In this document: positions 2,921-36,700 of the stretch, one piece after another
Layout: every line of letters starts with the position of its first letter
How positions within the stretch are numbered: position 1 is the stretch's first letter
Assembly: GCF_023055435.1 (NCBI RefSeq)
Contig: NW_025963813.1
Span: 20,274,001 to 20,338,000 of the forward strand
Reading direction: 5' to 3'
DNA: 64,000 nucleotides
Origin: Haliotis rufescens
Lineage: Eukaryota
Made by a program: the position numbers and the translations under genes
The notes under the pieces: generated by a model
The model's database searches: none
The model's input: only the letters and a program-made list of their open reading frames with translations
Told to the model about the DNA's origin: nothing

Positions 2921-2935
2921 TACTCGTCGTATAAA

Positions 2936-9704: not shown

Positions 9705-11197
9705 ATGACACAGTGTATTCTATATCTTCTCCTCTTACTATGTTATGCAGAGGCTGCTCCTCTTATTTCAAGCCCCTGGGGTAAGATTCAAGGAGTCACC
9801 CAAACCTCACCGACCGGTAAGACGTACAACGCCTATTATGCCATACCATATGCTCTCCCTCCAACTGGAAAACTTCGGTTCCGACCGCCGAGTCCACATC
9901 CAGGTGTTACAGAAGTCTGGCAGGCCACACAGTATGGCCCGGTTTGTAGTCAGCAAGGTTTTGGCCTCGGCATTTTGACTATTCCTTCGAGCGAGGACTG
10001 TCTGACGTTAGGCGTCCATGTACCAACACCCGGAGGTTCTGGAAAGTCTGTTATGGTTTGGATCCATGGTGGATCGTTTAAGACAGGCGGTGCTCCACTG
10101 TATGAACCGTGGAAGCTGGTGACAGAGGAGGACGTCATCGTTGTGGTTGTCCAGTACAGACTGGGTGTGTTTGGATTCCTCTCCACAGGCAACGCTGAAG
10201 CTCCGGGTAACTTTGGGTTACTGGACCAGGTTCTGGCATTGGAATGGGTTCAGAAAAATATTGGATCATTTGGAGGAGATCCTGACAGTGTCACCATTGT
10301 CGGGGAATCTGCGGGGTCAGCTAGCGTGTCTCTCCATACCCTGTCTCCTGTGTCCAAGGGACTGTTCAAAAGAGCTATAATGCAGAGTGGAGCTGCCACA
10401 GCATATTGGGCGAATGACAAAAAATATAGAGAGAAGCTTGACCAAATTTCCTCAGCCGTGAATTGTTCTGGGATGGCGACAGACAAGCAGACCGTTGCCT
10501 GTCTAAGAGGCCTACCTGCTGGTGTTCTTCTCAAAGCGACGGATCCCATGGACTCGGGGCCTGTTGTTGATGGAAATTTCATGCGAGGAGATCCTGCTAC
10601 CTTGATCCAGAACGTAACGTACCTCACAGATCTTGGGTTTTATGACATGGACGCATTGGTTGGTGTCAATAACAACGAGGGCGGGCTACTGCTTGAGAAC
10701 GCTAGATCTTCTGATGCTCGTGATAACACGTCCACTGCTGAAACACTGAATTCCACATACGTCTATGACAAAACACTCATTCCCAACATCTTAAAGTCAA
10801 CTTATGGACAGTATGACGCCATTTTGGCTGCCGTCATATCATACGAGTACACGTCACCGCGAACAGAGAACCAGAAAACCCTCGATATCAATGATGTTCT
10901 CCACACTTACGGTGATGTCTCATTCGTCGCCCCTGCAGTCGCGTATGCCCGGCGACACTCCGACAACAGAAAACATGGCGGGAGGGGCAAAACCTATTTC
11001 TACTATTTCAATCATTACCCATCATTCTCTGCAGGAAGTGGCACACAGGGAATGTACCATGCATTCGACCTTCCATATATGTTTGGCCTCAGTTCAACAT
11101 CAGTATCCCTCTTCGGACTTTTCGGACCCATCACAAAGGATGAACAGACCCTGTCAAACACATTTGTAAACTTCCTGACGGCGTTTGCTAAAACCGG
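9705..11197 (+). CDS. Carboxylesterase type B (CES-A), coding exon 1
   Basis: ATG 9705 with signal peptide MTQCILYLLLLLCYAEA; motifs IPYAxPP, SEDCL, WIHGGSF (oxyanion hole), QYRLG, GESAG (catalytic Ser), NNNEG (Glu), GMYHAFD (His); ends FAKTG at phase-2 donor GG|GTAGGT. Confidence 0.95.
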
Positions 11198-11858
11198 GTA
11201 GGTACATGAAGAATTACACACAGTTATGCACTAGTTACACATTGATTGATCCTTTAATTATTTGTTCACATTTATTTCCTAAAATATATTTCAAACTGAT
11301 AATATACAAACTCTCTTCCCGTTTCACACGCAGTGACAATTTAGTAGCCAGTCAATACTGACAAGGGCTAAACATTTTACATCGATTTCTGAAATAGGGA
11401 GTCCAGCAAGATGTTTCGGAATGACTTTTTCGTGGAGTTAAGTGTTGACAGAAATGTGTCAGGAATACTGAACTCCTCTGTTTAGGAATCCCTAGAGTAT
11501 TTAAATATAGGACGGACATGGCGAACAAAATATTTGCGAAGCTTGAGGTTAATATTTCAGACAAAACCCACACAAGGCATGTAAGCCATGATGTGATTCT
11601 GCAGAAGGGACATCACTCACAGCTGTCATCAATAATATCTTATCACTGGTATTTTAGACATGTTTGTATTACCGGGTTCTTTCAGAAAATGTCAAGCTTT
11701 CTCAATATTCGGCAAAAGATAATGGTATCAATCGAAAATGTAATTCATTGACTCCGGTAATAAATTCGGCGATAAATAATCAACTTAACAAGAATCTTAC
11801 CAGTGATATATTATGACAGCGGATATATCCTGGTATACAGGGGGTGGTTTGGTTGTAG

Positions 11859-12087
11859 AAATCCCAGTTCAGCCGTGCAGCTTCCCCTGGGTGGTACATG
11901 GAAACAGTTTGACGTCCAGGATGAAGCCTACATCTCCTTCACCACCAACATGACCCTGGAGCATCACCTGCAGGCTAAACGTGTCTCCTTCTGGCTCCAT
12001 CTGATGCCGGAGCTCTTCCAGCTCGAGCGGGCTAAACTCACGGCTCCAGGCATCGGACACCAAGGCACAGACATGCTGGTGGGGTGA
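11859..12087 (+). CDS. CES-A coding exon 2 (soluble C-terminus; spliced protein ~573 aa)
   Basis: Acceptor tgtag|A restores G-NPSS...TWKQFD...YISF...RVSFWLHLMP...DMLVG*; no hydrophobic TM segment; ATTAAA at 12193. Confidence 0.9.
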
Positions 12088-12249
12088 CTGTAACCATTCA
12101 ATAATGAAACCGCTGAATGACTTCATGCCGTGTAGGTTTGTTAATGATCAATTTATATCCAAATCAGCATCTTGTAGTTCACGAGGAACTGTATTAAAAT
12201 TATAACGAAGGGCACGGTGTTTGGTCCATCTTGTGTGTGGTCATACATA

Positions 12250-13330
12250 GTAATAACATGCATAGTTAATACCTCTTAAAAGGTATGATTGTTAACACAA
12301 GGGACTTCTCTCATCTACCCAATACACACTATAGTCGACAACTTGTGACGACAGGGGATAACTTACACAAATGATGTCATTAATTATATTCATGCAGACA
12401 TGTTGCTCTTCGTGAGTTGGAATCCCTGTCTAGATTCCATAAAAGAGTAATATACTATACTTCTATATACTGCCTGAAGCTGACATACCACAAGTCAACG
12501 CTGGGTTAGTGGAGGTCTCTCATTTATAAATACATTCCGACGATATCCCCGCTGAGCATTAGACATGTTTCGGTTTCCTAAACTATCAGCAGAATTTACA
12601 TAATGTCTTTTTGGTATGTTATCCTTACCGTTGATTGCCAAGAACGTCCATGTTAATTGAACTACCCTATACTGAAAAAAAAAACAATAAAAAATCTCGA
12701 AAGTTTAAACGGCTTCAAACGAAGAGCAATGTCACCTTTCAGTTAGAATCAAATCGGAATTATGACGGTTATCCAGTCAAAGCGAATAAAACGAGGTCAG
12801 CCTTGACGCCACCTTTCTGACCTACCGATTGTGTATATCAACACCTGTCTTCACTCAGTGGGTAAGACAACAGCACAGACACATGCCCGCTCACAGTGAC
12901 AAAGAGGTTATGGATATGTAAACATTATCTAACTCTCTCTAAAACTCTGATCCAGTATTAGTTCATCAAATAAGCCAAACAAGATCCCAAAATCAGAAAT
13001 TCCGAAAATACCCAAGCAAGTCCACAATATTCGTGCAAGTCCAGATTTCATCAGTTCTGGAAAAGATGGGATTCTTTGGGCTCCTTTTAGTAAACTATTG
13101 AAATGTTAATCTTACGAAATACCGCCCGTGTCTGTATGATGCAGACATCCTTCACAGTGTCATACGGGAGATTGTAGGAGCGCTTCACAATACCCGTCTT
13201 TCTCAGTGCAGTTGTTCAACATGAGTTAAACCGTCTACTGGCCTGTCACTGAGCGAGTGGCTGTGATGTTAAACAACGTGTGTACACTTAAATTGACCCC
13301 CCTTAAATGTCAGTGTTTTGGGTGTCCTAG
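12250..13330 (+). repeat. Local duplication, copy B (CES-A 3' flank)
   Basis: Colinear with 2936-3540 but carries an extra ~460 bp (12517-12974); similarity resumes at ~15454-15575. Confidence 0.88.
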
Positions 13331-14539
13331 CTATACCCATGTACGTCTTCGCTTGCTCATGATCTTTCAACCCATGTTGCGAAACGAAACTGATAGAAGT
13401 TGCGTGTGACTGTCAGAAGACATATCAGAGGAACTAAAGCTGTATCCATTCCTGTGTCCACAGACATTCTGCACCTGTATAAGATATGATAAAATAAATG
13501 CGAGTGTACATATACATACACCCACTAGGGGTACAGAAGCAAATTAAACACATTATACATTATAACAGTCAGAAATATATGATACAGTAGTCAAAATTAG
13601 TAAAGCAATGTCAGAGTGTGTAGTAATGACACTGTGCTGGAACCCACAAAGTTAGGGATCTTACCGCATTTCAAACATACTGTGTTTTGAATGGGCTATG
13701 AGGGATGAACAAGATGGGCTTAGTGGGGATTCTAAAACAGTGATTCCTTTTGGAGTTATGAGCTGGAAATGATAACTTAAGCTTAAAGTAGTGTTGAGAG
13801 AGCAGTTAGGCAGAAGTGGTGTTCATCTCCAGCCTCTCCTGGGTGGCACAGTTTCCGCTTGCTGGGCACTGAGAGGCCATATGATCCAAGCCTACCCATG
13901 GTTCTTGTTTCTGACTGAACTAACATCAGATATTATTTCATAAATGTGCTACTATTTGTTCCCACAATTCTCAGCAAGTGTGTTTTGTCGTGTGCTGTAG
14001 ATTGCGATGTACCATTATAGTAGATGTCAATATATGTGTTGTGCAATAATTCATTTATCTTGAGTTTTAACATGCCATTCTTGTCAGACTGAAAATGAAT
14101 AATCGTTGTCATTTTATGCTGACACGAACGTTTTGAGTTGGTCCCCTGAAACGACACTTCCTCCGTCATAGCAGCATATACATGTTTGCTATTATCAAAT
14201 TGTTTCATCAGGATATAATATTTTAAACATTGTGGTGAAGATATTTATCGAAAGGGGGAAATAGTCCTTGTTCACTCAAAGTTGCTTGTTCATCTTGACA
14301 CTTTATGACGAGTCTTTGTAATCTTCATAAGGGTATTATTACATAGCAACTTGTTCCGTATGCCTGTATTAGTGGAGATCTGCTCTCCCCGTACTTCACA
14401 TTCATATGTGGCAGGTGGCATCACATAGGCCCTGTACATTAATAGTAAAGACTCTGCTTGTAATTAAGTATCTGTTGTCAAGCTATTTCGGCCAGTCAAC
14501 AAACCATGCCTGACGTCTCCTCTCACGTTAGCTTGTTTG

Positions 14540-15030
14540 AGGGATCCATTCCGGTGAAGTGATACCCCTAAAATGTGTAAGACTAAAACAAGTCAATACA
14601 ACAATTTAGGTTTGCTGAGGTTAATATTCAACTTCCTGTCATCACCGAAGATTAAAGGATTGTCAACACTAGTTTATTGACATTTTGTAGAATGTGATAA
14701 CAATACAAGATCACCAGCATATAGTAGGTAGGCAACATCTTTACCATTTAATTGAAGATTTGAAAAGGCACAGAAGGATAGATAATCTTTGAGGTGATTC
14801 ATATAAAGATGTGTGGGACTACACACACATTGCTATCCTCTTGTGTATGATGGGATGGATTCAATCACACCCTTCTTTTTTTGACAGAATAGCTAATTTC
14901 AGAGTGCATACTAAGACATTGAAGATATTTCCATTTAAACCATAATTAATTGATTTATGTCTAAACCATCTTTTCAATTTGAGCCAATAGCTTTGGAAAA
15001 GTCCACAAGAAGGGATTAAATTTCTTCGTA
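14540..15030 (-). mobile_element. Degenerate LINE reverse-transcriptase fragment
   Basis: Minus-strand motifs in the expected order: LVDFSKA (~15020), DVAYLLYAGDLVL (YADD-like, ~14740), DDRKLNINLSKPK (~14650), ILGVSL (YLG-like, ~14570); many stops. Confidence 0.75.
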
Positions 15031-17664
15031 GTTTCTTTGCGTCGACATCAGTGTATTGAGATTGAAGGGTTCATTCGTAGGACGGTGACAAGTGATCTTT
15101 TTCTAATCCCTCACTGCGACTTCTTGCGAATTTTTCTGAAAATCATGCAAAATTATTTACTATTTCCTTTCCCGGATTAAACAAATAAGTGCATTTAATT
15201 GTCAATACATATGCTTTTCTTTACGCTCTCAGTGGTCGGGTATTTCGATGTGCGTTGTTTCTGTTGTTGGATTATAAGCATACAATCAAACTGAGGGGTA
15301 GTCCACATTGAACGAACAATTTCAAGGGAACTTGCAAAGACATCACTGTCAGATATAAATCGTATTTCGATCATTCAAACGCCTCATTTTAAAACGCAGA
15401 ACATATTCCGAGTTGATTTGGTTTTTTTCAGTTAATTCGTGTTCGGCAATTACACCAGCATTGTTTGTGTTGACAAAGGAGAGCGTAAAGTTTGAAAAAG
15501 GAGCACGTTAACATCTTTTGCACATGCTAATATCATTCAAAAGATTAATAATAGTGGATATTAAAAAATATTAAGAGTTTTTAGTGAATCCGAAACAGAA
15601 TTATTCAGAGACTTAAAGTGATCTTCCCATTCACCTACTGGAATATCTTGTATATCTGTCACACCGGTGCTGGCTGCTGTACTTCACAACACAAATTCTA
15701 CATGTTAGAAGAAAACTTTAAGATAATGGAATTCTTTGATCACGAGTAACACGATACGTTTATATACAGAACAAAACTACATTGAAATAGGGCAATTCCG
15801 CAACACTGTCATATTGCATTGCAGGGTAATTATGAACACATGGGAAAACACATTTGTGGGCCGCCGGGGGGGCAGACAGACTAGCAACAGACAACCACGT
15901 GGGGAAGGTGGAATCAGACATATGTTCCAGATTCCAGAAATGTCTGACATATCGCACGTATGCTGTGCTTTGCTTGTAAATACGAAACAGCAATGTTGCA
16001 TCGCCGCGTAAGTAATGTAAAGCACTGAAACAGTATAAGTATCTGAGATCATCAGTTCGAATATTATGTCTGCCTTGTGCCACTTTATAAGAGAACATTA
16101 GTAGAGTAGGGGACCAACAACGCATTTCCCCCGTACTTTATGTCACAGGAACAGGTTTTAATCGGTTTGGACTACTGCTCACTCTGTGTAACGTGTTTCA
16201 AATTCATGTGTGGTATAATAACGGTCTTTTTGCAAGATGGCATCGTGTCTTTAGACTCTCTGAAATGATAATCCTTACAAAAAAAACAGCTGCTAAATGT
16301 TGTCAGTGAAATGTGAAAACAAGGAGCTCAGAGACTCTCTTCATTTTCAGAAGACTGCAGTGAGGGGAGGGGTGGGCGGGTTGGGAGAGAGAGAGAAGAG
16401 AGTAGCCAGCAACCTAAATGCCTTCAATCGTCTTCATTCCTCAAAACAGATATTATAAGATATTGTATGCAACTTCTAACACGGTCTTTATCTGCCTAGA
16501 TTTAAGTTTAGCAACATTCGGTGACAAGATAATGGAAACATAAATACGAATATGGGTATAAGGCACCCAAAACACTGACATTCCTCTTTGGTGGAGGGCC
16601 GCCCTACTAGAACCAACTGGGGTCTTTCATTCATGACAACCAAGTACATCATTATGTACAGCAACATCTGAGCGGCGTTAGCGGACAATCTTGATAAATG
16701 GGAACCATCCAAATATGTCGGATAGATAAAATAGTTCAAAGATAAGCACCGCGGCTACTGTGACGAGTCTTGTTTGAGAACATAACACCTCCCTCATTAA
16801 CGCCCGACCAACCTACAGAGGAACATTTTCACACACCGGGGTGCAATACATACCAGCCTTCTCTTGTGTACTGAGGTGTACCCAATGGCTGGCGCACGCG
16901 CTCACGTGCGAGGCAATCGCAGACTCTCCTTCCGGTTGCTGGTATGTTCTGAACTGGGCCAAAGTAATTGAGACGATTTTAGTGTGCGTGAAGCTTCGAA
17001 ACTGTGGCAGTATCAAGTACTTCACCTAATTTACCCTCTACCACAACGCTAGCCTTATGAGAGGGTTCTGACCAGTAACTAACCGCAGACAAAAGGTTCT
17101 AAAGCAGGACGCTTAAAGGAATTGTACATCAAAAGTTGGATCCGTAATTTGAGGAATTTATACAAGAAATGAGTGGTAAGACAAATATTCTTCTCACTAG
17201 TGGTTCAGTGCGTGCCCCCTGCCGACAGCGGACGTGTATTTCTATGCGGTGATGGGGCAGGATGTACACACGCACCGTTCTCAGTGATTCTACCACAGGG
17301 AGAGGGGCCAACATTTCGCACCCATGTGTGTTTCGCCTCGTTCATATGATGTGTGTTTTGACATTAACACAAATATGGTATGGTATATTGGACAGCTGTG
17401 TGTGTGCTGGCACTGCCTCGGGCCTGTCGTCGCCTGCACTTAGCGGCACCACAGAACGGCCTGATTTGGGGTTAAGAAGAAAGAATGTTGAGTTGGCAAG
17501 CCGTCCATATTCAGAAAGATAATACGACAATCGGTTGTATCAGTTTAATACTTTAATGAAGATGTTATTAAGATGTGTGTTTATTAGAGATGACGAAACG
17601 TGTCAACAACAAAAGAAATACACGAATGCTCTGTCAGTAAAACCAGTACTATTTACATACTGGT

Positions 17665-18370
17665 AAGATAAGATAAGATTCGATTTATTGCAGAAACATT
17701 CCATTACGGGACAGGTGCATTTTTTTAAAATGACAAAACATTATGATTCATATATACATATATACAGACATACATACATGTTTGATGATATTATACATAA
17801 ATGTCATCGGTTCATTACGATCAAGGGGTATTTATTGCTTGAAGTGATATACATGAAAACAAATGCAACTGATATTGATGGCTTCAATATTTTAGAGGAT
17901 GTAGTGAAATAATTTGTTTTCATGACTGTGGACATTTACATTTTGTGTGGATACTTTTCCAAAGAGTATATGTCTTGAGTGTGTTTGGTGCAGTGAAGTA
18001 TGTGGTGTGTTTCATCATCAATGGTTGAACATGTAGAGCATAGCCTCTGATGTAGTGGGGTTGGTGGCTTTGTATGTCTTCCACGTTCAATATTTAATTT
18101 ACGGTTACTTAATCCTAGCCTAGAAAACTGCTCTCGATATTTTCTTATTTCACAGTAACTGAGATAGGGTTCTTATTTTATTTCATTTTTAACTATCCTG
18201 TATGCCCTGTATGATATTATCTTTTCATCATGCTCTCTTATAAAGTATCTGGAATGAAGTTGAGTCTTCTTCTTTGCAAATGTGTTCGTTTGTGTATAAT
18301 TATGTATCTGCATTGCCACTGAAGAAAATGCACATTTCATGATATAACTGATCCAAATGCGGGAATACTT
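17665..18370 (-). mobile_element. LINE 3' fragment (ORF2 C-terminal Cys/His domain and tail, RTE-X-like)
   Basis: Minus strand reads EPYLSYCEIRKYREQFSRLGLSNRKLNIERG...CSTIDDETHHILHCTKH, followed by AATAAA and an (ATCTT)n tail near 17665-17690. The clade assignment is inferred. Confidence 0.75.
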
Positions 18371-21300
18371 TTATTTGTTTAATAGTTTACATTCAATTAT
18401 ATAATGATAGATATTTTCACATGGATTAACACATGCACAATATGTTTCTTTCTTCAAACAAACTTTAATCATAGTATAATGAAACCCAATTGTGTCGTAA
18501 ACTTAAATTTTATGGACTTATGTCCATCATCTTGTTTGATTCCTGACATGAAGAAGGCAGAGTGTGCAAGTTTATATACTATATACTATATTTATGACAA
18601 TGTAAATAGTAAAATAGGGTTTTTATGTTTGGTCGAATAATAATGCTTTAAAGTTTATTGAACGGGTGAATAAGTATGTAATAAGAATGTCAAATTACCT
18701 CAACACCAGGCGTCATTCACTGATCCCTGACGCTACTGTAGTGGACAGTGACGTCATTGCATCTCTTAGCACCACTCAGAACAGCGTACGCTATCAGTTT
18801 AACGCCCATCACCATGACCTCATGCAGAATATATACTAAATTACACTGTACACTATATCAATGCTGGTTTTGGAGCTGCTTCACGGGGATATGTGTCACT
18901 TTATGGATAGCGGTATGTGTTGGGATCAAACCACATCCTGCATGTCGTACAACTGGACAGAATCCCGACTGTTTTAGGGGCGTCATAACACACATGATAA
19001 ATGTCGGATTGTGTCCAATGTGAAGCTGATTCGGTCTGCCATGTGATCTTTCATAAAATGTCATGCATCCCTTCTTAAAGTTCAAAAATGGATTTAATCA
19101 TCAAATGATAGCCCATGACCTATGGTATAATAGTAGTTTCAGCAACGGTGAATATATTTGTTTCGTTTTGTCCGGTTCGACACTTCTCATTTAACAAAGT
19201 GATGTGTGTGCTTCTGGGTCATCGTCCCGAGCAACTGGAGTACTGTCGCCAGGGCAACCGGAATCGGTCAGTATTAAGCTAAGGGGGTCTTGGGGTATGT
19301 TATGGGGTTCATGTACACTTTTTGTAAATAGATAATGAATTACATGTGAGCAAACGTACGAACACGCGTGTGTTATTGATTGTTTTCTGTCACACAAAAG
19401 CTTAATCAATTCATTTCTGTTAATGGCAGTGTTATATTGTTACATACTGCGGTATGTTTATGTGTCCATTACTAGTACAAGAAATTGGAACAGTACCTTG
19501 TCACATTTATACCTCCGCGTTCCTGAAACAGATTCTACTACGCATGATCTGTGTGTGTGATGCCTTTACCACGCGCGTTGGCGAGAAGGTGCACGGTGAC
19601 TTAGCTCTCAGTACGGAATGTCAGACAAAATACCATGTTGAAAGTGTGTGCACACTCGGGAAAATAAGTTCTATTTCTTTGCTAGAGGCAGTTTCGCGTT
19701 GATGACGCAGAACAACAGTGAATAGCTTCGTCTTAAGATCTTATCTATGTAGTTGCCATAGAAACAGGTGTTTTTTATTTGCACTCGCTTCCATTCGTCC
19801 ATTGCTCATTTCCAATCAGTACTAATTTACCTCCTAGCCTCTAGCATCTCTGTATCCTAGCATTCATTCACCCAGTGAAGGAGTAAGTATACTCCGAAAC
19901 GTTGTGTTCCTCATAATAGAGAAGTTGACATCCATACAATTTCTCTTTTGTGTGTATCACTTCTAAATGCCATTTAAAGACTTGAAACAACATACATAAA
20001 CACTGAATCATAATGACTTTAACATCCTTGGTCGCCCCAGATCTGTATACTGAAAGATATTCAGCAACAATGTATTTCCGCATTATTTATCGAAATTTAA
20101 CATTTCTCTGCGAAATATTCGGAAGATGAGATTTTTTTTATTTCGTCCCAATTTTTAAAAGCGTTGGGGTTTGACTCCCAGCATGGCGTGAGACGGCGAT
20201 AAGCTTGCATCCGCCGCGCTCTCATGTAATATTGGGCAACAAGCACACTGAATGCTTTGAGGCAAGGATCAAAGGCCAAGTTGATTTTCAGATGACTTAC
20301 AGAGTATTGCCGGTGTCAGATGACTGTTAGCACCGTGGGTATTTATGGGTGATGAAGGCCGGTGCTTGTCGTTGTGGGAAGTTCAGTGAGAAGGAGGGGG
20401 CCATTTGTTGAATACAGCTGACAGGGAAGCGACATGCCAGGTGACGGTTGCACAGAAGTAGTTACGTCTCTGTTAAATACAGTAACTCACAAAAATATGT
20501 TACCTGCCATGACAACATGTTTATTTGGTCGTGAAAGTAAACGTTATGATAGTTTACATATCGTGTTTCAATTTTGGGGGTGGACTCTTCCACCCATCCC
20601 ACAACCCCACCCCACTGAAGGTACAAGTGCCCACCCCCTCCTTTTTTAAATCATGAATCCGCCCCTGGAATAGCAACACCTGTCTGTCCATTTGTCTGTT
20701 ATTAAGATTTTATAAACAAAATCATGACACTGAAATGAAAATATTTAAACTTTCCTTAGTTCCAGTGCCTTTTCGTACAAGACGCTCAAGGAATGTTAGT
20801 AGCGTGCTGTTTTCAAGAGGGTGGCTTTGAGTGTTTTTCGCAAACAAGTGACAGCTTTAACTCCTCTGGTGTGGGTTGGTAGCACATCCCGTAGGACGCC
20901 ATATGCTAAAGGTTTAGTGCTGTCCAAAATTAATACAGTAATAATCTCTTTTGAGCTGAGCATGCAGATTCATTGTTATCCATTAGTCGGAACTGTCCAG
21001 TAGCGTTATCTGCATCCCTGGTCGCGTCTTGGAGCACAAGTCTTCACTCCTCCTCACCTGCCTTGGGATTAGTCAACGTCCGCCGCACCCGGTATGCAGG
21101 TCGTGGATCATTTGCCTTCCAATGCATGCAGTATGAAAGTGCCTCATTGTTATATGTTATATGTGTCTTCACACAATACGTATATTGCATACACATCATA
21201 TTGTTAGGGTAATATTCATTTTAGGTGATATTCCTGAACTCCATACACTGGCTGGAACCTAGTCCTGCACCATGACTGTGAAATATATTTAATTTTTGAG

Positions 21301-22366: not shown

Positions 22367-22490
22367 GGGCGGAGGGCTACCCGAGTGGTTGGCCCGACAT
22401 GCCGAAGACCTGGGTTGGATTCCCCAAATGTAATAGTGATATTCCTTGGATATAGCTAAATGCGACGTAAACACATTACTGACTAACAAG
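22367..22490 (+). mobile_element. Degenerate, internally deleted copy of the tRNA-derived SINE seen at 22832
   Basis: gggcggagggctacccgagtggtt...gccgaagacctgggttggattccc...gtgatattccttggatatagctaaatgcgacgtaaac. Confidence 0.65.
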
Positions 22491-23745: not shown

Positions 23746-25595
23746 CGTCATCAACTAAGCATCCAATGAAAGTGTTTTTTTAAGATCACCCAATCACTTG
23801 TTAAGTATGCAATGCCAGCATGGAGCTTTCTGACAGAAGTGTGTACAGGGACTAACGTCAAGGGCACATATATGCCTGTTGCTGGCTTGGTACTTACACT
23901 GAGGCTATGCGACAGACTAACACCAGCGAGCGTCAAAATGTCGACAAGAAGACGACAGTACTCGAGAAATCCGTAATTCAACAGTGTCCGTCAATATCAC
24001 CGCATAGTTGGAGAGTAGTTATGTAAGCTCTCTCTCTCCCAAGAACATGTGACATTTTACTTCCATTTGCATTGTACATTCATTGTTAAAGATATACAAA
24101 TGTGACGTTTGAAACATACTTCACCTTATAGACAATTTAGAACCGTCACGTCATGACTTCCAGTTTTTCAATGGGATCAACGGTGCATCGGACTTCTTAA
24201 ATAGATCAAGTAGAAACAGAACTTGCTTAATTACCTTCGAATGAGATAACTGAAAAAGACCTGTGTGAGTGTCAGTAAGTTCGGCTAATGCTATGAAAGC
24301 AGCTCAGAGTTTTGCTTATCTTGTATGAGTGGTCAAACTTCGCTTGGTCTTTTACGGTTTCGAATAATTCGGGGACAGTTGATAACGCGTTAAGACATAA
24401 TCAGCGTCCGTGTCACCGATACCGCACATTACCGCTGTCATGTGACGAATGTAGCTATGGAACAGTTGTACGAGGAACAGTTTTCCACGCTACATTTACA
24501 CTGTCAGTATTTGTTCCGGGTGGAACTACTTCCACATGGAACTGATGATCGTTGACAGCTGCACCATGGAAGCTGTACGCATCGTCAGACTCGCCTCCTC
24601 TTGCATCTCCCTGTCATACGTCACACACGACAGATGTCACATGGCCAGTGGTGTATTTAATTTGTCATTGCTTCAAGTAGACATTATAAATATTATATGA
24701 TTATAATCAATTACTCTATGCAAATTTCAAACAATTAGCTCAATTTAAAACGTCATTCCCCATATTGTTCGATGTTATTATTTATTGTACAAGATCTCTT
24801 CAGTGTCTGTAGACAAACTTGTGAATGAAACGATTCATGTCCATTTAGATAATAAATATACACTTTTCAAATAAAGTGTGAAACAAATCAAGTATTGTCT
24901 GTTTTGTTAAACATATTCCATGCTGGGATCGTGAGTAACTTCCTGTACATTGTGTTCGCTGTGATGTCAGCAACGCAATCTGCGTACATAAGTATCCATC
25001 AGCTTTACGCCTAACCATGAGATTAAACTAGTCACATTCGATTGCTGTACAGTTATGTTTGTGTCAGTTATATTAAGAAGATGGCTTTCAGCTTCGAAAA
25101 TGATAGGGAAGGGAAGTAACTCCTTTGAGTCTGAGGCAGTTGAAGTCAGCAGCCATATAATGAGATATGTTGAGAAATGAAAAGTCGTCGGACCGCGTTC
25201 TGGTTTGTAAACATCATAGGGGACCACGTACGGGGTTGGCTGAATGTACCTGAGCCGAAGGATGGCTGGTACACCTTTAACAGCTCATATGTATTATAAG
25301 TACAGTTTTCTCCATGTTAACGTGCTGCATTTCAATCAAATACACAACTTGGCAGTATATTTCAGCAGGCTTCACAATTACTATGTATTTTCTATTGATG
25401 ATAGGGACACAGTTTTCAGCAGAAGTACCAGAATTAGTAAGTCATTACTGTTATTTCCATCGCTGTTTGGTATGAGTTCGTTTATTGTTATTTCTTCACG
25501 ATCAGTTTTCTCCTCACTGCATAGCCTTCTATAACTGTTTCCTAATTTGCAATTTGAGATAATTCGTTAATATCCCCACTTCTCGTTAAATTGTT

Positions 25596-25885
25596 CACTT
25601 GCCTCGTCACACCATACAGCTTGGTCATCCCGTGTAGCATTGCAATGATTAACATGTAGGCCACATGTCTCGTCACACCATACAGCTTGGTCATCCCGTG
25701 TAGCATTGCAATGATTAACTTGTATACCACTTGCCTCGTCACACCATACAGCTTGGTCATCCCGTGTAGCATTGCAATGATTAACTTGTATACAACTTGC
25801 CTCGTCACACCATACAGCTTGGTCATAACGTGTAGCATTGCAATGCTTAACTTGTAGGTCACTTGCCTAGTCACACCATACAGCC
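25596..25885. repeat. 66-bp tandem repeat, ~4.4 copies
   Basis: Unit cacttgcctcgtcacaccatacagcttggtcatcccgtgtagcattgcaatgattaacttgtatac recurs at 66-nt spacing. Confidence 0.93.
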
Positions 25886-26759
25886 ACATGCCGAAGCGCA
25901 GGTTTGTAATGTCTCGGTAATTGACAGCGAGATCGACGTTCGCTGTTAACAACTGAGAACACTGATCAAGGCTAAAGGCAGACAGCAAATCAAACATCTC
26001 AGCATTGAAAATAACACTAATGTGATTTTTCCATCTAAATCTTGGTATGTTCATAAACGTCTCTTCTTGACGGTCTTCAGTAACATTTCTGTCAACACTG
26101 TTGAACACTTTTTGGAAATTGTATCATTCGCAACGAGTATGGACGTTCAAAACCATGCACATTATTAACACAAAATAAAGTCAACCCCACTAGTACCATT
26201 TTCCTTAACACGTGTAATGTACCTTCCATATTTCCAGGGAATCTACCATATAGCATTTGAATTTCAAATATACAGCATAAGACTATGCGGTCCTTCACGT
26301 AGTCATTCCATACATCACCTCAAGAAATGTATCAGTGTTATAGTTCATATCTTCCAAACCTCAAATAAATCTATTGTTATCGTTCAAACTATAATCATAA
26401 GCGCCAATGATGAGCGCACTCCGACTGCCACGCCTCCTCTGCAGTTAAAATCTCGGGGACTCGAATAAATAGAGATACCCGGGAATGCAGACTCAATGTT
26501 CCCCTTTCGAACAGCTGCTTAGGATTTCGGGAAGTCCACAAAATGTCAAAACAATGGCAAATAATAAATCCATTATCAGGTGTCAATGCTTGGCTTGCAT
26601 CGAAACCGGGTCACCTTTCGGATTTTTGGGGTCTGTACTTGTCAGCTGTAGCTGTTGCTCTTCACCTCCAGCCCAGCTCGCAACAACAAGAATACGATAA
26701 ATACCGAGATACGTGTAGCCATGCTCGCCATGTGAGACATGGCAGCCCTCCGACTTATT

Positions 26760-27017
26760 TTATTTGTTTGTTTGATGTTCAACGTCACACTCCAACTATA
26801 TGACAGCGGTCTGTAAATAATCCAATCTGGACCAGAAAATCCAGTGATTGATATTATGAGCATGATCTACGCAAACTGGGATACCATGGTGTGCATCAAC
26901 CATGTCAGCTAGCCTGACCACTCGATCCCGTTAGTCTCCTATAATGACAAGCATAGTCGCCTATTACGGCAAGCATGGGTTGCCGAAGACCTATTGCAAC
27001 CCGGATCTTCACGGGTC
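26760..27017 (-). mobile_element. SINE-like element of the same family as 23227-23475
   Basis: (TTTG)n end plus the shared body; minus strand contains a CATGCTTG.CGTAA.AGGCGACTA core that resembles, from memory, the Meta/MESC SINE domain (unverified). Confidence 0.75.
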
Positions 27018-27265
27018 CCGACTTATTTGACACAATATCCACCACTAGTGCTGTGATGCTTCAAAACACCCAATCTTTGCACGAAACTGTTCCGTGCAAT
27101 TCCCACTGCACATTCGTTTGAAAGATAATACTTTAAACGTGTGAGGTGGGAAATCCACGGAGTAATTACATACCATGTCACCTCATCAAGGGAAGATATG
27201 ATAATGGACGATCGATGACTTACCACACGTCACATAGCCAACAAAGCATGTATCTCACGAAGAGC

Positions 27266-27730
27266 GGCTGGATATGACACGAGGCATATGACGTCGGTAG
27301 AACCACTGGGTATGACGCTAGGTATATGACGTCAGTAGAACTGCTGGGTATGACGCTCAGTATATAACGTCAGTAGAACTGCTGGGTATGACGCGAGGTA
27401 TATAACGTCAGTAGAACTGCTGGGTATGACGCTCAGTATATAACGTCAGTAGAACTGCTGGGTATGACGCTCAGTATATAACGTCAGTGGAACTGCTGGG
27501 TATGACGCGAGGTATATAACGTCAGTAGAACTGCTGGGTATGACGCTCAGTATATAACGTCAGTAGAACTGCTGGGTATGACGCTCAGTATATAACGTCA
27601 GTAGAACTACTGGGTATGACGCTCAGTATATAACGTCAGTAGAACTACTGGGTATGACGCTCAGTATATAACGTCAGTAGAACTGCTGGGTATGACGTAA
27701 GGCATGTGACGTCCGTAGAACGACTGGGTG
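27266..27730. repeat. 38-bp VNTR, ~12 copies, rich in CRE half-sites and TATA-like motifs
   Basis: Unit GTATATAACGTCAGTAGAACTGCTGGGTATGACGCTCA; full TGACGTCA at 27327-27334. Confidence 0.95.
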
Positions 27731-27740
27731 AGGCGTCACA

Positions 27741-27747
27741 TATAAAA
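27741..27747 (+). promoter_or_regulatory. Candidate TATA box upstream of CES-B
   Basis: TATAAAA immediately after the VNTR, ~490 nt upstream of the CES-B ATG; TSS not known. Confidence 0.35.
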
Positions 27748-28234
27748 CACCGGGAGGGCAGCCAACCCCAACCGGTATCAATCGACAGGCTGTGTTTATG
27801 ATAAAGATAACGATAAAAAGGTCAATATTTACAAATACTTTGGACTTCAGGCTGGAAAGGACGCTCCGCCCACCGTGTGTCCAGAGACGATATGTCACGT
27901 ACACTTTCTGCCAGATAACAAGTCACCTGACTCTCCCGTATACCCGCAAGGTACACACCACCCACGCACGCATGATACAGGGCCGTGAGAGTAGATTGTG
28001 CGGACTGTGTACATTGCGAGCATAGGTCGTTATATGAATACAAGTTTCACATCTAAATCCCTGCAACACCTTACTCTCGTATACGTTACATTGTAAATTT
28101 TCCGAACAGTGATTACAGAAAACGACATTTCGCAATAGTCAAGATCAGGGTCAAGAAGCACAGGCGAGGAGCGACGGGATAGTAACTGAAACTGATGAAA
28201 GTCAGTTTGTTGTTCGATCTACCAAACTTTTCAA

Positions 28235-29781
28235 ATGGATCAGCTGATTATTGTGGCCTTGTTGATCCTCCCTGTGATGGGGAGGGAGGCACCAGTGATA
28301 AATGCAACCTGGGGACGTATACAAGGCGTCACGAGAACCAGTAGAGACGGACTACCTTACTTTGGCTACTACGGAATCCCGTACGCGACACCTCCAGTGG
28401 GAGATCTCAGATTCAGAAAACCCAAAGCACATCCAGGAGTTTCCATATCCATATTTAATGCTTCCAGCTATGGACTGCCATGTCTTCAGCAATCACCAAT
28501 GCTCCCTCTAAACATCTCCTTTCCAGCCATGAGTGAAGACTGTCTCACCCTGAATGTGTTTCTGCCCAACACAACTGAGGTATCGTCCAGCGTGTCTGTG
28601 ATGGTCTGGATCCACGGGGGAGGGTTTGTGTATGGAGCCGCTTCTTTGTACGAGCCTTGGCAATTGGTGACAAAAGGTGACGTCATCGTCGTCACCATCC
28701 AGTACAGGCTGGGGATATTCGGATTTTTCAGTACCGAAAATGACGTCGCACCTGGTAACTACGGATTATGGGATCAGCACCTGGCACTGCAGTGGGTCAA
28801 GAACAATATTGAAGCTTTTGGTGGTGACAGTAGCAACATCACCATCATTGGAGAATCTGCAGGGGCGGCGAGTGTCGCGTATCACGTGCTGTACCCAGAG
28901 TCAAAGGGGTTGTTCCAGAGAGCAGTTCTACAGAGCGGAGCTGCCACGTCTCTCTGGGCGATCAACAGACATGTCACGTTTTTGTCAATGTTTGTTGGAA
29001 GCAGTTTAGGTTGCCTCGGTGATGGCCCTGATATAATGAGTAGACAACAGGCAATGGTAGACTGTATGAGGAAGAACGATAGTATGAGAGTGTTAGCCTT
29101 TTCGTATGTTGGAGGGACACCAGCCTACGAGCTAATGCAGTACACTTGGGTCCCGACCATTGATGGAACCTTTGTCAAAGACGATCCACAGGTATTAATG
29201 AGTGACATCACTTTCTTAAATACCACGTGTATCAAGGACATCGACGTAATGGTAGGGGCTAACAACAACGAAGGGGGACTTCTGCTGACGACAGCTCTAG
29301 CATTCGACAAGGCGTATGGCTACACATACGCAACCGATATCTTCAAGCAGAAGGAGTTTGATACAGATATTCTTCCAACAGTTACATCATTGGCATTAGC
29401 AGCTATCCCTCCATCCATCAATGATATCGTCAGTGTGGAGTACACATACCCGCGACCACCATCTGACGAGCCCCTACCTCAACAACAGGTGCTTTCAACC
29501 TACGGTGACCCCAGCTTTTTGATACCGGGACTGCTCTTTGCCAGGACGCACGCATTGTTAAACACCAGCAGGAGGTGTTATTTCTACCTGTTTAATCACT
29601 ACCCATCTTTCGCCAGAGAGAGCCCTGTGAAAGGTATGAGCCATGGAACGGACACCTTGTATCTGTTTGACCTGGACCCGGCCACAGTCAAGATACTTGG
29701 CTACACAGGGAACCTGACGTCAGAGGAGTATGAGCTGGCAGATACATTTGTCTCTTTCATTGCTGACTTTGCCAAGACAGG
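28235..29781 (+). CDS. Carboxylesterase type B (CES-B), coding exon 1
   Basis: Signal peptide MDQLIIVALLILPVMG; motifs GIPYATPP, SEDCLTLN, WIHGGGF, GESAG, NNNEG, GMSHGTD; ends FAKTG at phase-2 donor GG|GTAAAT. Confidence 0.96.
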
Positions 29782-30013
29782 GTAAATAACTCGCCTTATG
29801 ATGACGTCATCGTTTCATTTCCATAATCGTCATGTAGGATATGTCATCAGCCGACACTTATTAAGTAAAACATGAACTGTTTTTTCCATCACAATGGAAT
29901 AACAAATGACCTTGTATTTATAAATACCGCAATATTTTTACATTCCCTCAATTGCGAGGAATAAACAGGCCTTTATTCATCTGTATTTCAAAGTATTGAC
30001 TTTATTTTCACAG

Positions 30014-30395
30014 TGACCCCAGTCCTACTGTTGAAGAAAAGCTTGGTCAGGCATGGCCCGAGTACAAGATGTACGACCAGCGTTACCTGTCCTTCACAAC
30101 AAACATGTCAGTAGGTGACCACGTGTACCCCAGGCGAGTGACCCTGTGGCTGGACATCATCCCGAACCTCGTGAACATCCCGACTACATCTACAGCTTCC
30201 ACGTCATCTACATCCACTTCAAAAGCAACTACATCTGCCCCTACATGGTTCGGGCTAGACCCTCACACGGCCGAAGTGACTATCCTGGCCCTCATCGTAA
30301 CTCTGTGTGTCGTCGGCATGTTGCTGGTTACATTATCAGTGTGCTGCTGTTTGAAGCGGAGGAAACACGGACTGGAAGGATATACAGTAAAATGA
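30014..30395 (+). CDS. CES-B coding exon 2: end of esterase fold, Ser/Thr stalk, TM helix, short tail (spliced protein ~642 aa)
   Basis: ttttcacag|T gives G-DPSPT...WPEYKMYDQRYLSF...LWLDIIP, then PTTSTASTSSTSTSKATTSAPT, VTILALIVTLCVVGMLLVTLSVCCCL and KRRKHGLEGYTVK*; AATAAA at 30590. Confidence 0.92.
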
Positions 30396-30818
30396 GACCA
30401 ACAGATCTCAGGGGTATTTACAACTGAGCTTCAAGTTTTTATCACAGCCAAATAATCAGTTGACGATCATGCTTATGGTGATAATAATGCACTCCATCAC
30501 CTATATATCCCACTGAACTATGCTACCCCAGATGAAAGTACACGATTTTTGTGTACATCAAATTGATTTCTTTAATCACATACCAACACAATAAAAACTC
30601 ATATTAGTGAAAAACTTAATATATTTGTCGAAAACGTCAAGCACCACTGGGTCTAAAGATGTATGGATCGACAACAGAATGATAGGCATTGCTTCCATGC
30701 ATCAGTAGCTGTGACATCCCAGATACAGTCGTCGGTCGCAGCATCGGGTGAGACATCGGATGGACCATGTGGGAGCCTATTGAATGACTCGAAGTTCGTT
30801 GTATTGTTCTTTGGGGTT

Positions 30819-30826
30819 GGGTGTGT

Positions 30827-30857
<31 letters not shown>

Positions 30858-30866
30858 GGGGGGGGA
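30819..30866. repeat. (GT)n microsatellite fused to a poly-G tract
   Basis: gtgtgt...gt followed by ~25 G; the same architecture occurs at 61257-61295. Confidence 0.9.
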
Positions 30867-33800
30867 GTATTTGAAGAGAATGCGCAGTTAATTTCCATCT
30901 CTACGTAAGCTATAGCTCAGGGCCTGTTTTCGGAAGGTTCGAGATAATCAGCAAGAATAATACCGGCATGTCATCGGTAGACAACTTGGTAAAATCATAC
31001 AGTAATCAGAAGATTAACGAATAAACTTAATCGTCCCCTTGATGTGGATTTACCGTTATCTGGAGAGCGTGACATCCGTTCTGGGTACAACGTTTGCCAG
31101 GGCGCTGTGTCCATTGATGATGCGACCGTGGTGATCACGGAATGTTTCCAACGGTGCAAGTCAACCTCACCGGCGAACTTCTTCAAAGACATGGGGATCA
31201 TAGTCGTCACTCATGTTGACAAATACTTGAATATATCGACCTGTTTGTGTATCTCAATGCTTGTCTTTATCGGGAACGTGTTGTGGTTGAATTTCTGAAG
31301 CTCTATACGCACTCTTTATGTCCCACTGAAGCGCATCTACATTTTCTTATAATAAATACCCTTGACACATTTGTATTTTTCACTGTGGAATGTCGTGAAA
31401 CAGGCATCTCTCTGTTTATGAGTTCGGAATAGTGTTGGAACCTGGAAGGAATTCGGGTTTTAGGTAAGTATCCCATCCGCAAGTCAGGATGTAAAATGCA
31501 TCGAATCGCCGTCGTGGTGCTTTTGTATAGGTACAGGCAGCCTTCTAGAAACTGCCCCATCCCGAAACTTCTAGAACGTCAAGAAGTCAGGCATGTTAAG
31601 TTTACACAAAGGCGGTATAATATTCATTAAATATTCCTTCGCTGACAAAGTTATCTATCACGAGGTACATTGTTGTCACGCAGTCCTTCAGCTACATATA
31701 CTGCACAGTAAACAAGACAGTGAGGTGCATACACAAAAAAGATTCAAGGACTGAAAACTACCTCACATAATTGACAATTTGAAATGATCCATCTACACTC
31801 ATCAATCGATCATTAATAAAATCTACTGCATACCCTCTTTTCACAAATGCGTATATCGATGCTCACGAGGTCAGTCACTGGAGTGTCTGGTCTAGACTCG
31901 ATTATTAACTGACCTCCGTCATGAAGCTGGAATATTGCTAAGTGTGACTTAAACAACAAACAAACATCATGGTTCGACCTTTATAGTCTTTTCAGAACAC
32001 CAGTGCAAAAATATAGAGAGTACCAATCACTTTCAAGCTACTCACTGTAACCATTTCACACAAAAGATTTAGCATGTACATACCATACTTGTTGTCGCCA
32101 TTGGAATCTGTTGAAAATGATCCACAGATGATGCTGGAGTAGCTGGTAGTTTGGAGAAAACATTGAACATATCTATATCTATTTCACGTGTTATCTTGAT
32201 GAACAATATGCATTCGAATGAAGTCAGTGGAGCATAGGGGTTGTTGACTCCGTAGATTTGTTCATGTACATTATGATCAAATGTATAATAAAGTGCAAAG
32301 ACCATGTTATCATATCACTTGATTACATGCATCTGCCTTTATTCTTGGCTGTTTCCGAGCATTTTCCACATGTTTATTTTTGTGCCAGGAACTGCTGCCA
32401 TTTCATACGATTTACTTTCCTTAAACTACAGCTATCATATGCAACTGGGGCTTATAATAAATATTGTTTACTATTTATGCAAGCCTTGTCTTATTTGTGG
32501 TAAATATAATCATTCAGCTTCATGCCTTTTACTTCTGCCATGCAGGAGCTCCGTGTGTCAGGTACATTTTCTCCCGTTAACTTTGCCATGCATTAAATAG
32601 TAACGTCATAATTATGCATTTCTGTGTCATCACATATGGATGGGGAATATTGACGATCTGCGTCAATGTTTTCTTGTAATCCTAAAGGTTAATCTATCTG
32701 CATATTGTTATGAGGACGCCATGTTCATGCGTCTGTATGTCTGGGAATGACTTGGGACGTTGCTCGTTATATCCAGCACTGGTGTGTCCTGTCCAGACTC
32801 GATTACAGTCAAACACCGTTGTGTCTAAATTACGGTTGTCTCGAAATAAAAGTTTGGTCCCTACGAATTCCTTCTTTATTCATCATTTTCGGTTGTGCCG
32901 AACCTCGGATAACTCGAAGTATTTACGTCGGTGTTTAGCTGTATGTGCAGGCCTCAGTATAGAACAACAAACATAATAAATAAAACTTTCATAATCTTGT
33001 TGACACACGTTAACCTCTCGTTGTACATGATGTTACCTCTTGAATGTCTCTTACAGGGGAGGGAGAACCAACCCGTCGTTCTTACAAGCCTGACTTAATA
33101 GTCGCCCTGGCCCAGATCATTGGTGACCTGAGGATGAAGGGAGGGTCATGATTGTTATTTCATACAAATAACAAGAAGTGCCTCATTGTCAGTCCTAGAG
33201 AAGTTTAAAAGAATAAAACACTGAGGGAGAGCAGCATCTCAGGGTTTATTCTCCCTGCAGTGTTTTATTGTACGATAAACAACTCGTCGTTTATTTCTTA
33301 AATGAGATATTAACATTAGGTACAGGCTGTTTAAGGATCTTAGTAAAACGTACACGGTTGAAACATATTTACCCGTATTTAAATAATGATGACTCCCTGA
33401 ATAGAGTCCAATAGACAAGTCCAATTTATAAACAGGGGGAGTAAATTTGGTTTTCCCCGCATATTCTTACATGTTTCACGTCGATTATCTGCACCTTTTC
33501 TCCCAATACCGATTATCATATCTTTCCTACTTTTGGATGCAATCGTTCGGTCACTGCGTTCATCTGCACTGTCCAGCTACCCCTATGGGAAGCAACATTT
33601 CCCTCTCAACAATAGCGTCGTCTATTTTACGACGTGATCAAGTTGCGAGCGCATGTTCGAATCTCCAGAAATGACGGCAAGATTGAACAATGTTTTATCG
33701 TGAAATAAACCACGCTTCGTTCTTCATTGTTCTTTGCGATTTGCCGCTAAGCTATCATATATGATACAATAAAAAATATTTAACATCAACTCAGCCCAAT

Positions 33801-34539
33801 AATATAATTCATATTTTAATGCATATTAACACATGTTCTACATTGTATGTGCCGTTATCCAGGCACTCACAGACTCGTCATATCTGAAAATCCTCTTGGT
33901 TTTTACTGCGATGTAAGTTACAACGGTATGATGAACAGCCAACTTATTCAATATACAAGCCACTGTATTGAGGCGACACCTCACCTATGCAGACATTCTC
34001 CAGGCGCCCAGGAGTTCGGTCTCTTGAAACAATTACTGTTCCCTGGTCGGCCAGGTGGATCCCCGTGTAGACATGGGCTAAATCAAGACCTGCTGGGGAT
34101 GCTCGTTAACTCTGTGACATCACTGACACAGACACCTGAGCTGGATATACTGCTAGAAGAGTTGCCCAGCGCAGGAATGTTCGCTCACTCTTGTACGACA
34201 TGTTTTGTGATATGCATGTATCCATTTTACCAAAATCCTACAGCTACTCCCCACTCTCTTATCGACTCTTACATTCCACCTACGGTCAAAATCATTTGAC
34301 ATACATAAAACTTTTAGTGGTTTTAATTACCTTCATAAATATTCAGTGCATTTGCCTATGCTTGAATACTTTACTGTACTTCAATTTACCGTTAGAGCAC
34401 AATATCCACGTTAATTATATCAGAGATTGTATCATGCATGGGCCATTAAAGAAAGTTTTACAAGGATAGTCTCTAAGGTTTCAAAGGGAAATGCTAGTTT
34501 TAGTTCCACAATATCCACGGCTGCTGGCGATATGTTCAT

Positions 34540-34912
34540 TCAGTAGAGAGAGAAGCTCTGTTGGTCGTGAGAGGAACGACTCTTGATGCAAAAGCACGTT
34601 ACAGTTACAACCAGTACAACGGTCAACGCGCCGAGTGAGGAGCCCATCGCTATGACTGCAACTCTTGAGTTGTCAGGGCACCCTGGTGACGGTGGTGACG
34701 ATGTTGGGGCGGATGAATGCGTTGTTGGTTGCAAAACTGGCGATGGCCCTTCATTCAGCCTTGGGACAAGATCAAGCCAAAGCGAGGCTCTTTTGGAGTA
34801 AAGGTGACGTCCGATTGACATATTGACGTTGAAAGACAGATAGTATTCATTTGAGACGTCAAACTCAGGCCATGGCATAGCTAACTGTGTCTCCAGCACT
34901 GAATTAGGATCA
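34540..34912 (-). pseudogene. CES-C exon 2 (end of fold, Pro/Ser/Thr stalk, TM helix, tail)
   Basis: tgtttcag|T gives G-DPNSVLETQLAMPWPEFDVSNEYYLSF...LWLDLVP...PTTHSSAPTSSPPSP...VAVIAMGSSLGALTVVLVVTVTCFCIKSRSSHDQQSFSLY*. Confidence 0.88.
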
Positions 34913-35193
34913 CTGAAACAAAAACAACTTTCAAAGTAAGAGAGTAATTATTCACTGCACAAATATACAAACATGTCACAAATAATGATTAAAGAGGTTT
35001 GTTTCATTATCAGCCACCACAAAACATGGTGTATTCTTTTATTGCCCGGGAGGTTAGATAGATAGATACGTTCTATAATTCCCGGATTCTGTATCTTACA
35101 TGCCTATCTGAATTATTTAGGAAGTGTATACAAACAAATACACATCTCAAGCAATAATCATTTCAGGACATTAGCAAAGCGGCACACACTCAC

Positions 35194-36700
35194 CCCGATT
35201 TTGCAAAGGCCCCGATGAATGCTGTGAACTTGTCCGCCAGCTGATACTCCTCACTTGTGATGTTTGTATTGTTGGAGTCCAGCTGACCAAACAGATACCG
35301 GATGTCCATACCGTGCATCATCCCTTTCACTGGAGAGTCTCTTGTGAACGACGGGTAATGGTCAAATAAATACAAGTAGGTTTTCTTGTCTGTCTTGAAC
35401 ATGTCATGAACTCTGGAAAACAATATGGCTGGCACGTAAAATGCCGGATCTCCGTAGGTCTCGAAGACCTGGTACTGTGGTAGACTCATAGTAGCATTAG
35501 GGCGTAGATAGGTGTATGTAAATCCAATGACATCATCGACGTGTGGGTCGTGATGTCCTAACGTCAGATTAGTTACCATTGGCAGGACGTCTGTGTCGTA
35601 TGGCGCTGGTTGGAATAGCTGTTTGACATATGTTGTGTTCAGTAACCTGTCAAACATAACAGCAAGATCATACAGGATCCCCCCTTCGTTGTTATTGACG
35701 CCTACTAGGACGTCAACGTCTTTCAGGACGGTACTGGACAGAAACGTGTGGTTCAACATGAGTTTCGCTGGTTCATCGTGTATAAACTTTCCATCCTTTG
35801 TTGGCAGCCATGACAGGACCAACAGGTTATGTGCCATTGAACTGTTTATCACAGAAGAACGAAGAAGTTTGTCCACGGATTGTGTTCGCAGACATGTCAT
35901 TATGTCGCTCGGCTTAGCAAAGGAATCGGTCATACAATCAGCAGCCTTGGCGACAAGCATCAGCGTCGCCATTGGGTTTCTTTTGTACGCCCAGACAGGC
36001 GTGGCAGCTCCACTCTGTAGAACTGCTCTCTGGAACAGTCCCCTTGACTCCGGGTGCAGCACGTGATACGCAACACTCGCCGCCCCTGCAGATTCTCCAA
36101 TGATGGTGATGTTGCTACTGTCACCACCAAAAGCTTCAATATTGGTTTTGACTCACTGGAGTGCCAGATGCTGATCCCATAATCCGTAGTTACCAGGTGC
36201 GACGTCATTTCCGGTACTGATGAACCCGAATATTCCCAGCCTGTACTGGATGGTGACGACGATGACTCCGGTCTCAGTCACCAGTTTCCATGGCTCATAC
36301 TCTACAGCAGCGCCAGACATAAACCCCCCTCCGTGTATCCACACCATCACGGGCGTTTGAGTCGACCACACAGTGGAATCGGGCAGGAATACATTCAACG
36401 TGAGACAGTCCTCATCTGAGAGGTTTAAGTTCATATATTTGAATGATGGACACGCATAACCATACGCTGTTGCATTGAACACATCGTTTACTCCAGTGTG
36501 ACGTTCCGGTTTGTTGAACCTCAGATTGCCTGTTGGGGTTTCGCGTATGGTATTCCATAGTAACCAAAGTACGGAAGTCCATCTTTGCTAACTTTATCCA
36601 CACCTTGTATCTGTCCCCACGTAGCGTTGACCTCTGGCGCGGACAGCACAGACCACGGGACGCAGCCTAGAACCTGAAGCCAGAGAACTGAGAGTCTCAT
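35194..36700 (-). pseudogene. Carboxylesterase CES-C exon 1, disabled (frameshift and nonsense)
   Basis: CCACC-ATG at 36700 with signal peptide. One C is missing at 36535-36538 (restoring it gives PYAKPPTGNLRF). TGA at 36155-36153 where CES-B has TGG (ALQ*VK). GESAG, NNNEG and GMMHGMD are retained; donor GG|GTGAGT at 35193. Confidence 0.88.

Follow-up and report, generated by a model that had tools for sequence, protein, structure and literature searches.

The esterase cluster

A 64,000-nucleotide stretch of the Haliotis rufescens genome (G000:C35:20274001-20338000, here called the window) carries a cluster of three two-exon carboxyl/cholinesterase genes (PF00135), which we call CES-A, CES-B and CES-C. 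The genes are real, and A and B are already annotated in RefSeq under automatic names. Our best explanation combines a likely secreted CES-A, a CES-B predicted to be membrane-anchored and likely active, a broken CES-C, gene conversion between B and C, and a short patch of B that may set its specificity. We give this explanation as a whole, with the cluster as part of a gastropod carboxylesterase expansion, a probability of about 0.7. The features of the cluster are:

9705..11197, + strand: CES-A exon 1, bulk of the esterase domain behind a signal-like N-terminus; product P0011
Ser202 at 10308, Glu325 at 10677, His452 at 11058, + strand: CES-A triad codons
11859..12087, + strand: CES-A exon 2, end of the fold and soluble -MLVG C-terminus
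28235..29781, + strand: CES-B exon 1, type-2 version; RefSeq P0121
Ser208 at 28856, Glu346 at 29270, His470 at 29642, + strand: CES-B triad codons
28682..28948, + strand: B side of the putative conversion tract, residues 150-238 including the catalytic Ser; 250/267 bases the same as in C
28977..29108, + strand: patch of divergence within B, residues 248-292, where two old types of sequence occur
30014..30395, + strand: CES-B exon 2, end of the fold, stalk, predicted membrane helix, Cys cluster and 13-residue tail
34540..34912, - strand: CES-C exon 2, frame still open; encodes a Pro/Ser/Thr stalk, a hydrophobic helix and a tail of 14 residues
35194..36700, - strand: CES-C exon 1, pseudogene with a frameshift and an in-frame TGA
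36000..36266, - strand: C side of the putative conversion tract, approximate limits

The spliced translation of CES-A is identical to P0011, named "cholinesterase 2-like" of Haliotis rufescens, and CES-B matches P0121 (XP_046352081.2) on both exons. Against a PF00135 cut-off of 27 bits, CES-A scores 449 and CES-B 437 (E 1.8e-130, nearly full length), with nearly the whole model covered. Alignment places a Ser-Glu-His triad and an oxyanion-hole motif in the genes of the cluster. The catalytic-Ser motif GESAG is present in all three, and the loss of this serine that is typical of neuroligins is not seen. None of the three has the choline-binding Trp of the omega loop, present as WNPN in two AChE-like genes of this genome (L015 and L029), or an xDEL/xEL C-terminus for retention in the endoplasmic reticulum (ER). 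CES-B is neither a cholinesterase nor a neuroligin. The two AChE-like genes lie at C605:2.868 Mb (L015) and C46:31.24 Mb (L029), and Trp-less relatives are found on C46 and C257.

CES-A ends in -MLVG, has a peak 19-residue hydropathy of 0.37, and is likely secreted. A preliminary description of the window, made from the letters alone, had treated it as the sister of B and C. This is excluded by the B+C clade described below; the identity of CES-A to B and C is 44-46%, level with that of paralogs 15 Mb distant.

Predicted membrane anchor of CES-B

Splicing 28235-29781^30014-30395 yields a CES-B protein of 642 residues, in which a Ser/Thr stalk begins at residue 571 (30177) and a hydrophobic helix lies at about 604-625 (about 30276-30341). 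The C-termini of B and C are built alike, from stalk, hydrophobic helix, Cys and short tail, and the helices reach 19-residue hydropathy maxima of 2.77 in B and 2.38 in C. Helix-bearing B-type proteins occur in four Haliotis species.

The splice was followed in contigs of 4 of the 24 listed sequencing runs, two RNA-like and two DNA. The two RNA-like runs belong to a single study and are called RNA on the tool's guess, no run being recorded as RNA. The predicted junction 29781^30014 is joined GT..AG in single contigs in both RNA-like runs and in neither DNA run. The unbroken contig that covers the B acceptor in both RNA-like runs argues against a cross-gene splice from CES-A into it (11197^30014), though weakly, as contigs drop rare forms.

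For the H. cracherodii orthologue P0001, AlphaFold (81-row alignment; mean predicted local distance difference test score, pLDDT, 90.7) models an esterase fold, a disordered stalk (pLDDT <50 at 581-594) and a long membrane helix (599-636). A fold search with this model returns neuroligins, CES and cholinesterases alike, with template modelling scores (TM-score) of 0.68-0.72 and 28-33% identity. The first proposal was right in this: CES-B keeps an intact triad, is predicted to have a type-I membrane anchor and stands next to a soluble paralog. CES-B is likely a catalytically active esterase that faces the outside or a lumen. We read its C-terminus as a simple anchor rather than a device for adhesion or signalling because the tail is short and variable. 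We found no study of a membrane-anchored, triad-intact abalone esterase in a literature search whose coverage left out most subscription papers.

Probable gene conversion and two types of CES-B

B and C are inverted neighbours. Their similarity is concentrated in the tract around the catalytic Ser, as the flanks are identical at 243/374 and 425/805 bp. At third codon positions of the tract, B agrees with C at 78 of 89 sites and with A at 39 of 89, so protein constraint alone does not explain the likeness of B and C. In several protein columns of the tract, the B and C sequences alike divide by species group. The pattern is observed; the mechanism by which the catalytic-Ser stretch was exchanged is probably gene conversion.

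CES-B itself comes in two types, which differ at residues 248-292. Run contigs depart from the window in two clusters, 28977-29043 (X15, X16) and 29084-29108 (X1, X16). The second variant, when translated, equals H. cracherodii P0001, and the first agrees with P0001 in so far as its listed differences can show (13 of the 15 gap letters). Haliotis rufescens reads carry the other type, type 1, in either half of the patch, giving mixed combinations. A second B of H. cracherodii, P0122, has a patch identical to that of the window, and both B types occur in H. rubra and in H. asinina, where the contigs that carry them in a given species are equally long.

Outside the patch, quartet-informative columns group the proteins by species (64, 57 and 21 columns, against 1, 0 and 0 by type), and inside it they group by type (5, 2 and 7, against 0, 1 and 0 by species). 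Ten of the 11 distinct by-type columns fall within 45 alignment columns, and the by-type split in a tree of the patch has a support of 94 in the Shimodaira-Hasegawa-like approximate likelihood ratio test (SH-aLRT). The two H. cracherodii copies are identical at 584/592 positions outside the patch and at 26/44 inside. On these protein models, the B types are homogenised within Haliotis except at residues 248-292.

The assembly holds one CES-B. No second B copy or remnant was found in the window, in about 20 kb on each side, or in the genome, and when shorter proteins were searched for more patch types, P0008 alone came up. Contigs are deeper over parts of B than over C; such depth is no copy number and was left out of account. 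The mix of types in Haliotis rufescens could possibly reflect alleles, or a second copy that is missing or variable.

The patch aligns to an AChE helix, the disulfide loop and the segment just before the acyl-pocket loop, an AChE region which we take to be the gorge rim at the entrance to the active site. That the patch sets substrate preference and is held apart by selection has, in our judgement, an even chance of being right. The fuller proposal falls slightly short of that: conversion would keep two versions of the anchored surface esterase near-identical except in the patch, the two patch versions would be selected for different substrates across distant Haliotis species, and their halves would recombine in Haliotis rufescens as mixed single-copy or copy-variable haplotypes, much like an opsin switch.

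An alternative, which we hold to be somewhat less probable, is a neutral patch. An early indel or divergence would have blocked conversion there, or old alleles or introgressed haplotypes would persist without functional difference. The 5-residue deletion in the patch of H. cracherodii type 1 would suit such a block, and the mixed halves in Haliotis rufescens reads and the single B of the assembly, where depth is no copy number, also agree with neutrality. However, the two types of H. rubra and those of H. asinina differ without any indel, and the type-2 patch is identical at 49/49 positions between Haliotis rufescens and H. cracherodii while the rest of the protein is at 97%. The allele version also meets both types on equal-length contigs in three species, and the H. 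asinina types are not an allele pair because they are only 88% identical outside the patch.

The patch is a natural experiment: leaving this short stretch aside, the two enzymes are 96-99% identical. If the patch does set specificity, it leads to the residues responsible and to a trait, linked to diet or metabolites, with variation inside a farmed species.

Phylogeny and origin of the anchor

In quick trees of 61 and 39 rows, B and C form a clade (SH-aLRT 100) nested in a 29-row clade (SH-aLRT 99-100). All species-named rows of the larger clade are gastropods, and it also holds xEL and -IIG ends. CES-A falls outside B+C, and all three genes stand apart from AChE-like and neuroligin-like rows.

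The helix and tail of a Gigantopelta esterase resemble those of B, and none of 1000 local shuffles scores as high. The domain tree separates the Gigantopelta and Haliotis helix genes (SH-aLRT 97), but a single clade is not rejected by the approximately unbiased (AU) test (p 0.126). A triad-Ser motif together with a C-terminal helix also occurs in a Saccoglossus protein and one further protein; these hits were chosen by similarity to B exon 2, which biases their shuffle scores. A juxtamembrane motif like that of B is seen in P0038, P0139 and P0150, one of them from Gigantopelta, a hint that the anchor may be old or may have moved between paralogs.

Proposed working of the cluster

In the explanation that we prefer, CES-B would hydrolyse or transfer acyl groups through Ser208-Glu346-His470, a disordered Ser/Thr stalk holding it about 30 residues off the membrane. 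CES-A would act as a secreted esterase, and CES-C would be a B-lineage copy that is now broken. Conversion between the inverted neighbours would centre on the catalytic Ser, and the B types would be kept alike outside residues 248-292.

Several points weigh against this explanation. The triad was assigned by alignment, and the membrane helix of CES-B comes from hydropathy and an AlphaFold model. Both RNA-like contigs that show the splice carry the type-1 first half of the patch, not the exact version of the window. The patch analysis uses protein models of three species at sites that are not independent, with type labels read from the patch itself, and the two H. cracherodii copies, being so nearly identical, could be alleles of one gene that were each assembled. 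The link from the patch to the active-site entrance was made by alignment to AChE and general knowledge of residue roles. All tree supports are SH-aLRT only. A triad is also no proof of hydrolysis: in PMC12931606, truncated CEST-9.2, a nematode enzyme of like design, showed no activity.

A different function for CES-B, which we consider unlikely, is that of a luminal acyltransferase like the nematode CEST and UAR proteins, making ester- or amide-linked metabolites in gut granules instead of hydrolysing dietary esters. CES-B would share the CEST layout of signal peptide, triad, unstructured linker and C-terminal helix, and in some B tails a Tyr stands four residues before the C-terminus. Lysosomal Tyr motifs need a hydrophobic end residue, though, and none follows the tail Tyr here. 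The Tyr is absent in P0004, P0126 and P0127, and B is placed in a gastropod clade, in trees that have no CEST sequence among their rows.

The preliminary description had likened the anchor to that of neuroligins. A neuroligin-like adhesion or signalling protein that kept its triad would have the same topology, and neuroligins come first, by a narrow margin, both in the fold search and in the profile search with exon 2. We regard this as very improbable: the B tail has about 13 variable residues against about 150, the clade is separate, and every B copy conserves the triad region. The B/C helix was rejected as a homologue of neuroligin helices, since 498 of 1000 local shuffles score as high against the abalone neuroligin-like helix, and the anchor is not detectably derived from neuroligins.

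CES-C, a pseudogene

CES-C is a pseudogene in this genome, although it retains all three triad motifs. A one-base frameshift lies in the C-run 36538-36535 (near 36536), so that translation from the ATG at 36700 ends after 59 codons. Farther on, still upstream of the catalytic Ser, an in-frame TGA occupies 36155-36153. These two lesions do away with the intact catalytic CES-C that had been described. The TGA is seen in the assembly only, and no listed contig piece bridges it. Over 36237-36800, contigs of both DNA runs, which come from two studies, agree with the window at every base and show no gap; the frameshift is thus found outside the assembly too. CES-C exon 1 has no cover in the RNA-like runs, which was not used as evidence.

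The orthologues of H. rubra and H. asinina are intact, at 630 residues with the helix. The H. cracherodii model reads through both lesion sites and stops prematurely in exon 2, pointing to a separate loss there, or else to an artefact of the model. Assembly errors in a working gene could be argued from a single base within a short homopolymer, an unbridged TGA and these two intact orthologues, but with two separate lesions, an exact match in DNA runs of two studies and another early end elsewhere in H. cracherodii, we give that reading hardly any credence. The death of CES-C in this species is a correction relevant to annotation.

Intron position and last exons

CES-A, CES-B and CES-C share a phase-2 intron within the Gly of FAK[TS]G. 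This genome has at least 32 esterase matches, and 27 of the 30 loci read split a FAKTG-like Gly with a donor (26 GT, 1 GC). Of the other three, two have an Arg end that the pattern did not catch, and the third is a fragment belonging to another locus. Phase-2 acceptors before [DN]PN were found for most loci. The intron also occurs in the AChE-like genes (L015 donor, L029 acceptor) and in a neuroligin-like gene without the catalytic Ser. The preliminary description was thus right that the intron is ancient; because it is family-wide, it is no special modular device of this cluster.

The exon after the L015 donor was not found within about 40 kb. Two esterase genes, L060 and L061 (C79:16.20 Mb), lack the FAKTG intron (6 of 18 pattern matches examined). 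The neuroligin-like gene (G000:C605, about 8.864-8.909 Mb, L068-L072) has a FAKTG^NPN intron of about 20 kb and one more intron ahead of a last exon with stalk, helix and a tail of about 150 residues. Our literature search did not find the same intron position in vertebrate BCHE, ACHE or NLGN. A silkworm paper describes a phase-2 intron in 45 carboxyl/cholinesterases (CCEs), whose sameness with the FAK[TS]G intron is not established.

Exon 2 holds about 45 residues of the PF00135 domain. For this reason it is not a free tail module that merely sets localisation. The claim of almost the whole hydrolase domain in one open exon fails for C. Among 58 full-length homologues, drawn from 120 listed, 25 end in hydrophobic-hydrophobic-Gly, 13 have ER-retention-like ends, and 20 have others, including membrane and glycosylphosphatidylinositol (GPI)-like ends. 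Of the last exons read in this genome, only those of CES-B and CES-C have stalk, helix and tail; several genes seem to have a third exon beyond those read. Differences of tail type follow from family-wide variation in how the last exon ends, not from a switch specific to the cluster.

The hydrophobic-hydrophobic-Gly ends (-IIG, -IVG, -LLG; 12073-12087 in the window) occur in gastropod and bivalve homologues from distant branches (P0010-P0114), and -IIG-type ends also in L004, L006-L008 and L010. They are possibly an unrecognised sorting or amidation signal. A tandem cluster of -IIG esterases lies at G000:C35:4.52-4.55 Mb (L004-L007, L009), in which L006 and L007 are apparent twin copies with an internal TGA each, either a recent duplication or an assembly duplicate. 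The last exons of L012 and of L050/L062 (C124) end in a GPI-signal-like hydrophobic stretch without a tail.

Surrounding sequence

Long strand-skewed tandem satellites at 1-3000, 37200-45200 and 47200-49800 of the window yield spurious open frames. Open frames at 4900-5600, 8070-8540 and 53500-59600 resemble transposase copies, presumably of the Tc1/mariner type. Between B and C, 31650-32200 and 32800-33900 are very high-copy repeats with contig depth in the thousands.

Comparison with known esterase systems

By fold and motifs, the closest enzyme class is that of the vertebrate CES1/CES2 and mollusc xEL esterases. Unlike the xEL esterases, A, B and C have no ER-retention motif. With AChE and BChE the cluster shares the fold, the triad, a large first coding exon and, through L015 and L029, the donor and acceptor at the same Gly. 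It differs from them in lacking the choline-binding Trp and in forming a separate clade. The choice of AChE tail uses exons farther downstream. Neuroligin and gliotactin resemble CES-B in having an esterase fold, a stalk and a single helix, and the abalone neuroligin-like gene shares the FAKTG^NP intron. In contrast to CES-B, these proteins have no catalytic Ser (GHGHG in the abalone gene) and a long tail.

The two B types recall the divergence peaks under gene conversion described for red/green opsins (PMC3924837) and copepod GOT1 (PMC3728101). As in those systems, paralogs are alike within a species, a small region is alike between species, and mixed haplotypes occur. Unlike them, the B pattern is known from protein models and contigs alone.

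The nearest match to the anchored design lies in nematodes. C. elegans CEST enzymes combine a triad with a predicted C-terminal membrane helix, and the Ser of CEST-1.1 is required in vivo (PMC7641594). CEST-9.2 carries a signal peptide together with an unstructured linker and a helix (PMC12931606), and Pristionchus UAR proteins are built alike (PMC12350714). The preliminary description had allowed that an already characterised membrane-bound group would remove the novelty of its proposal, and this is the case: the anchored triad-esterase architecture is not new, and it is the anchored abalone clade that is unstudied, as far as our literature search reached. CES-B is like CEST and UAR in its triad, unstructured linker and predicted C-terminal membrane helix, and in belonging to a family with both soluble and anchored members. 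It is unlike them in its mollusc clade and in having a Ser/Thr-rich stalk as its linker.

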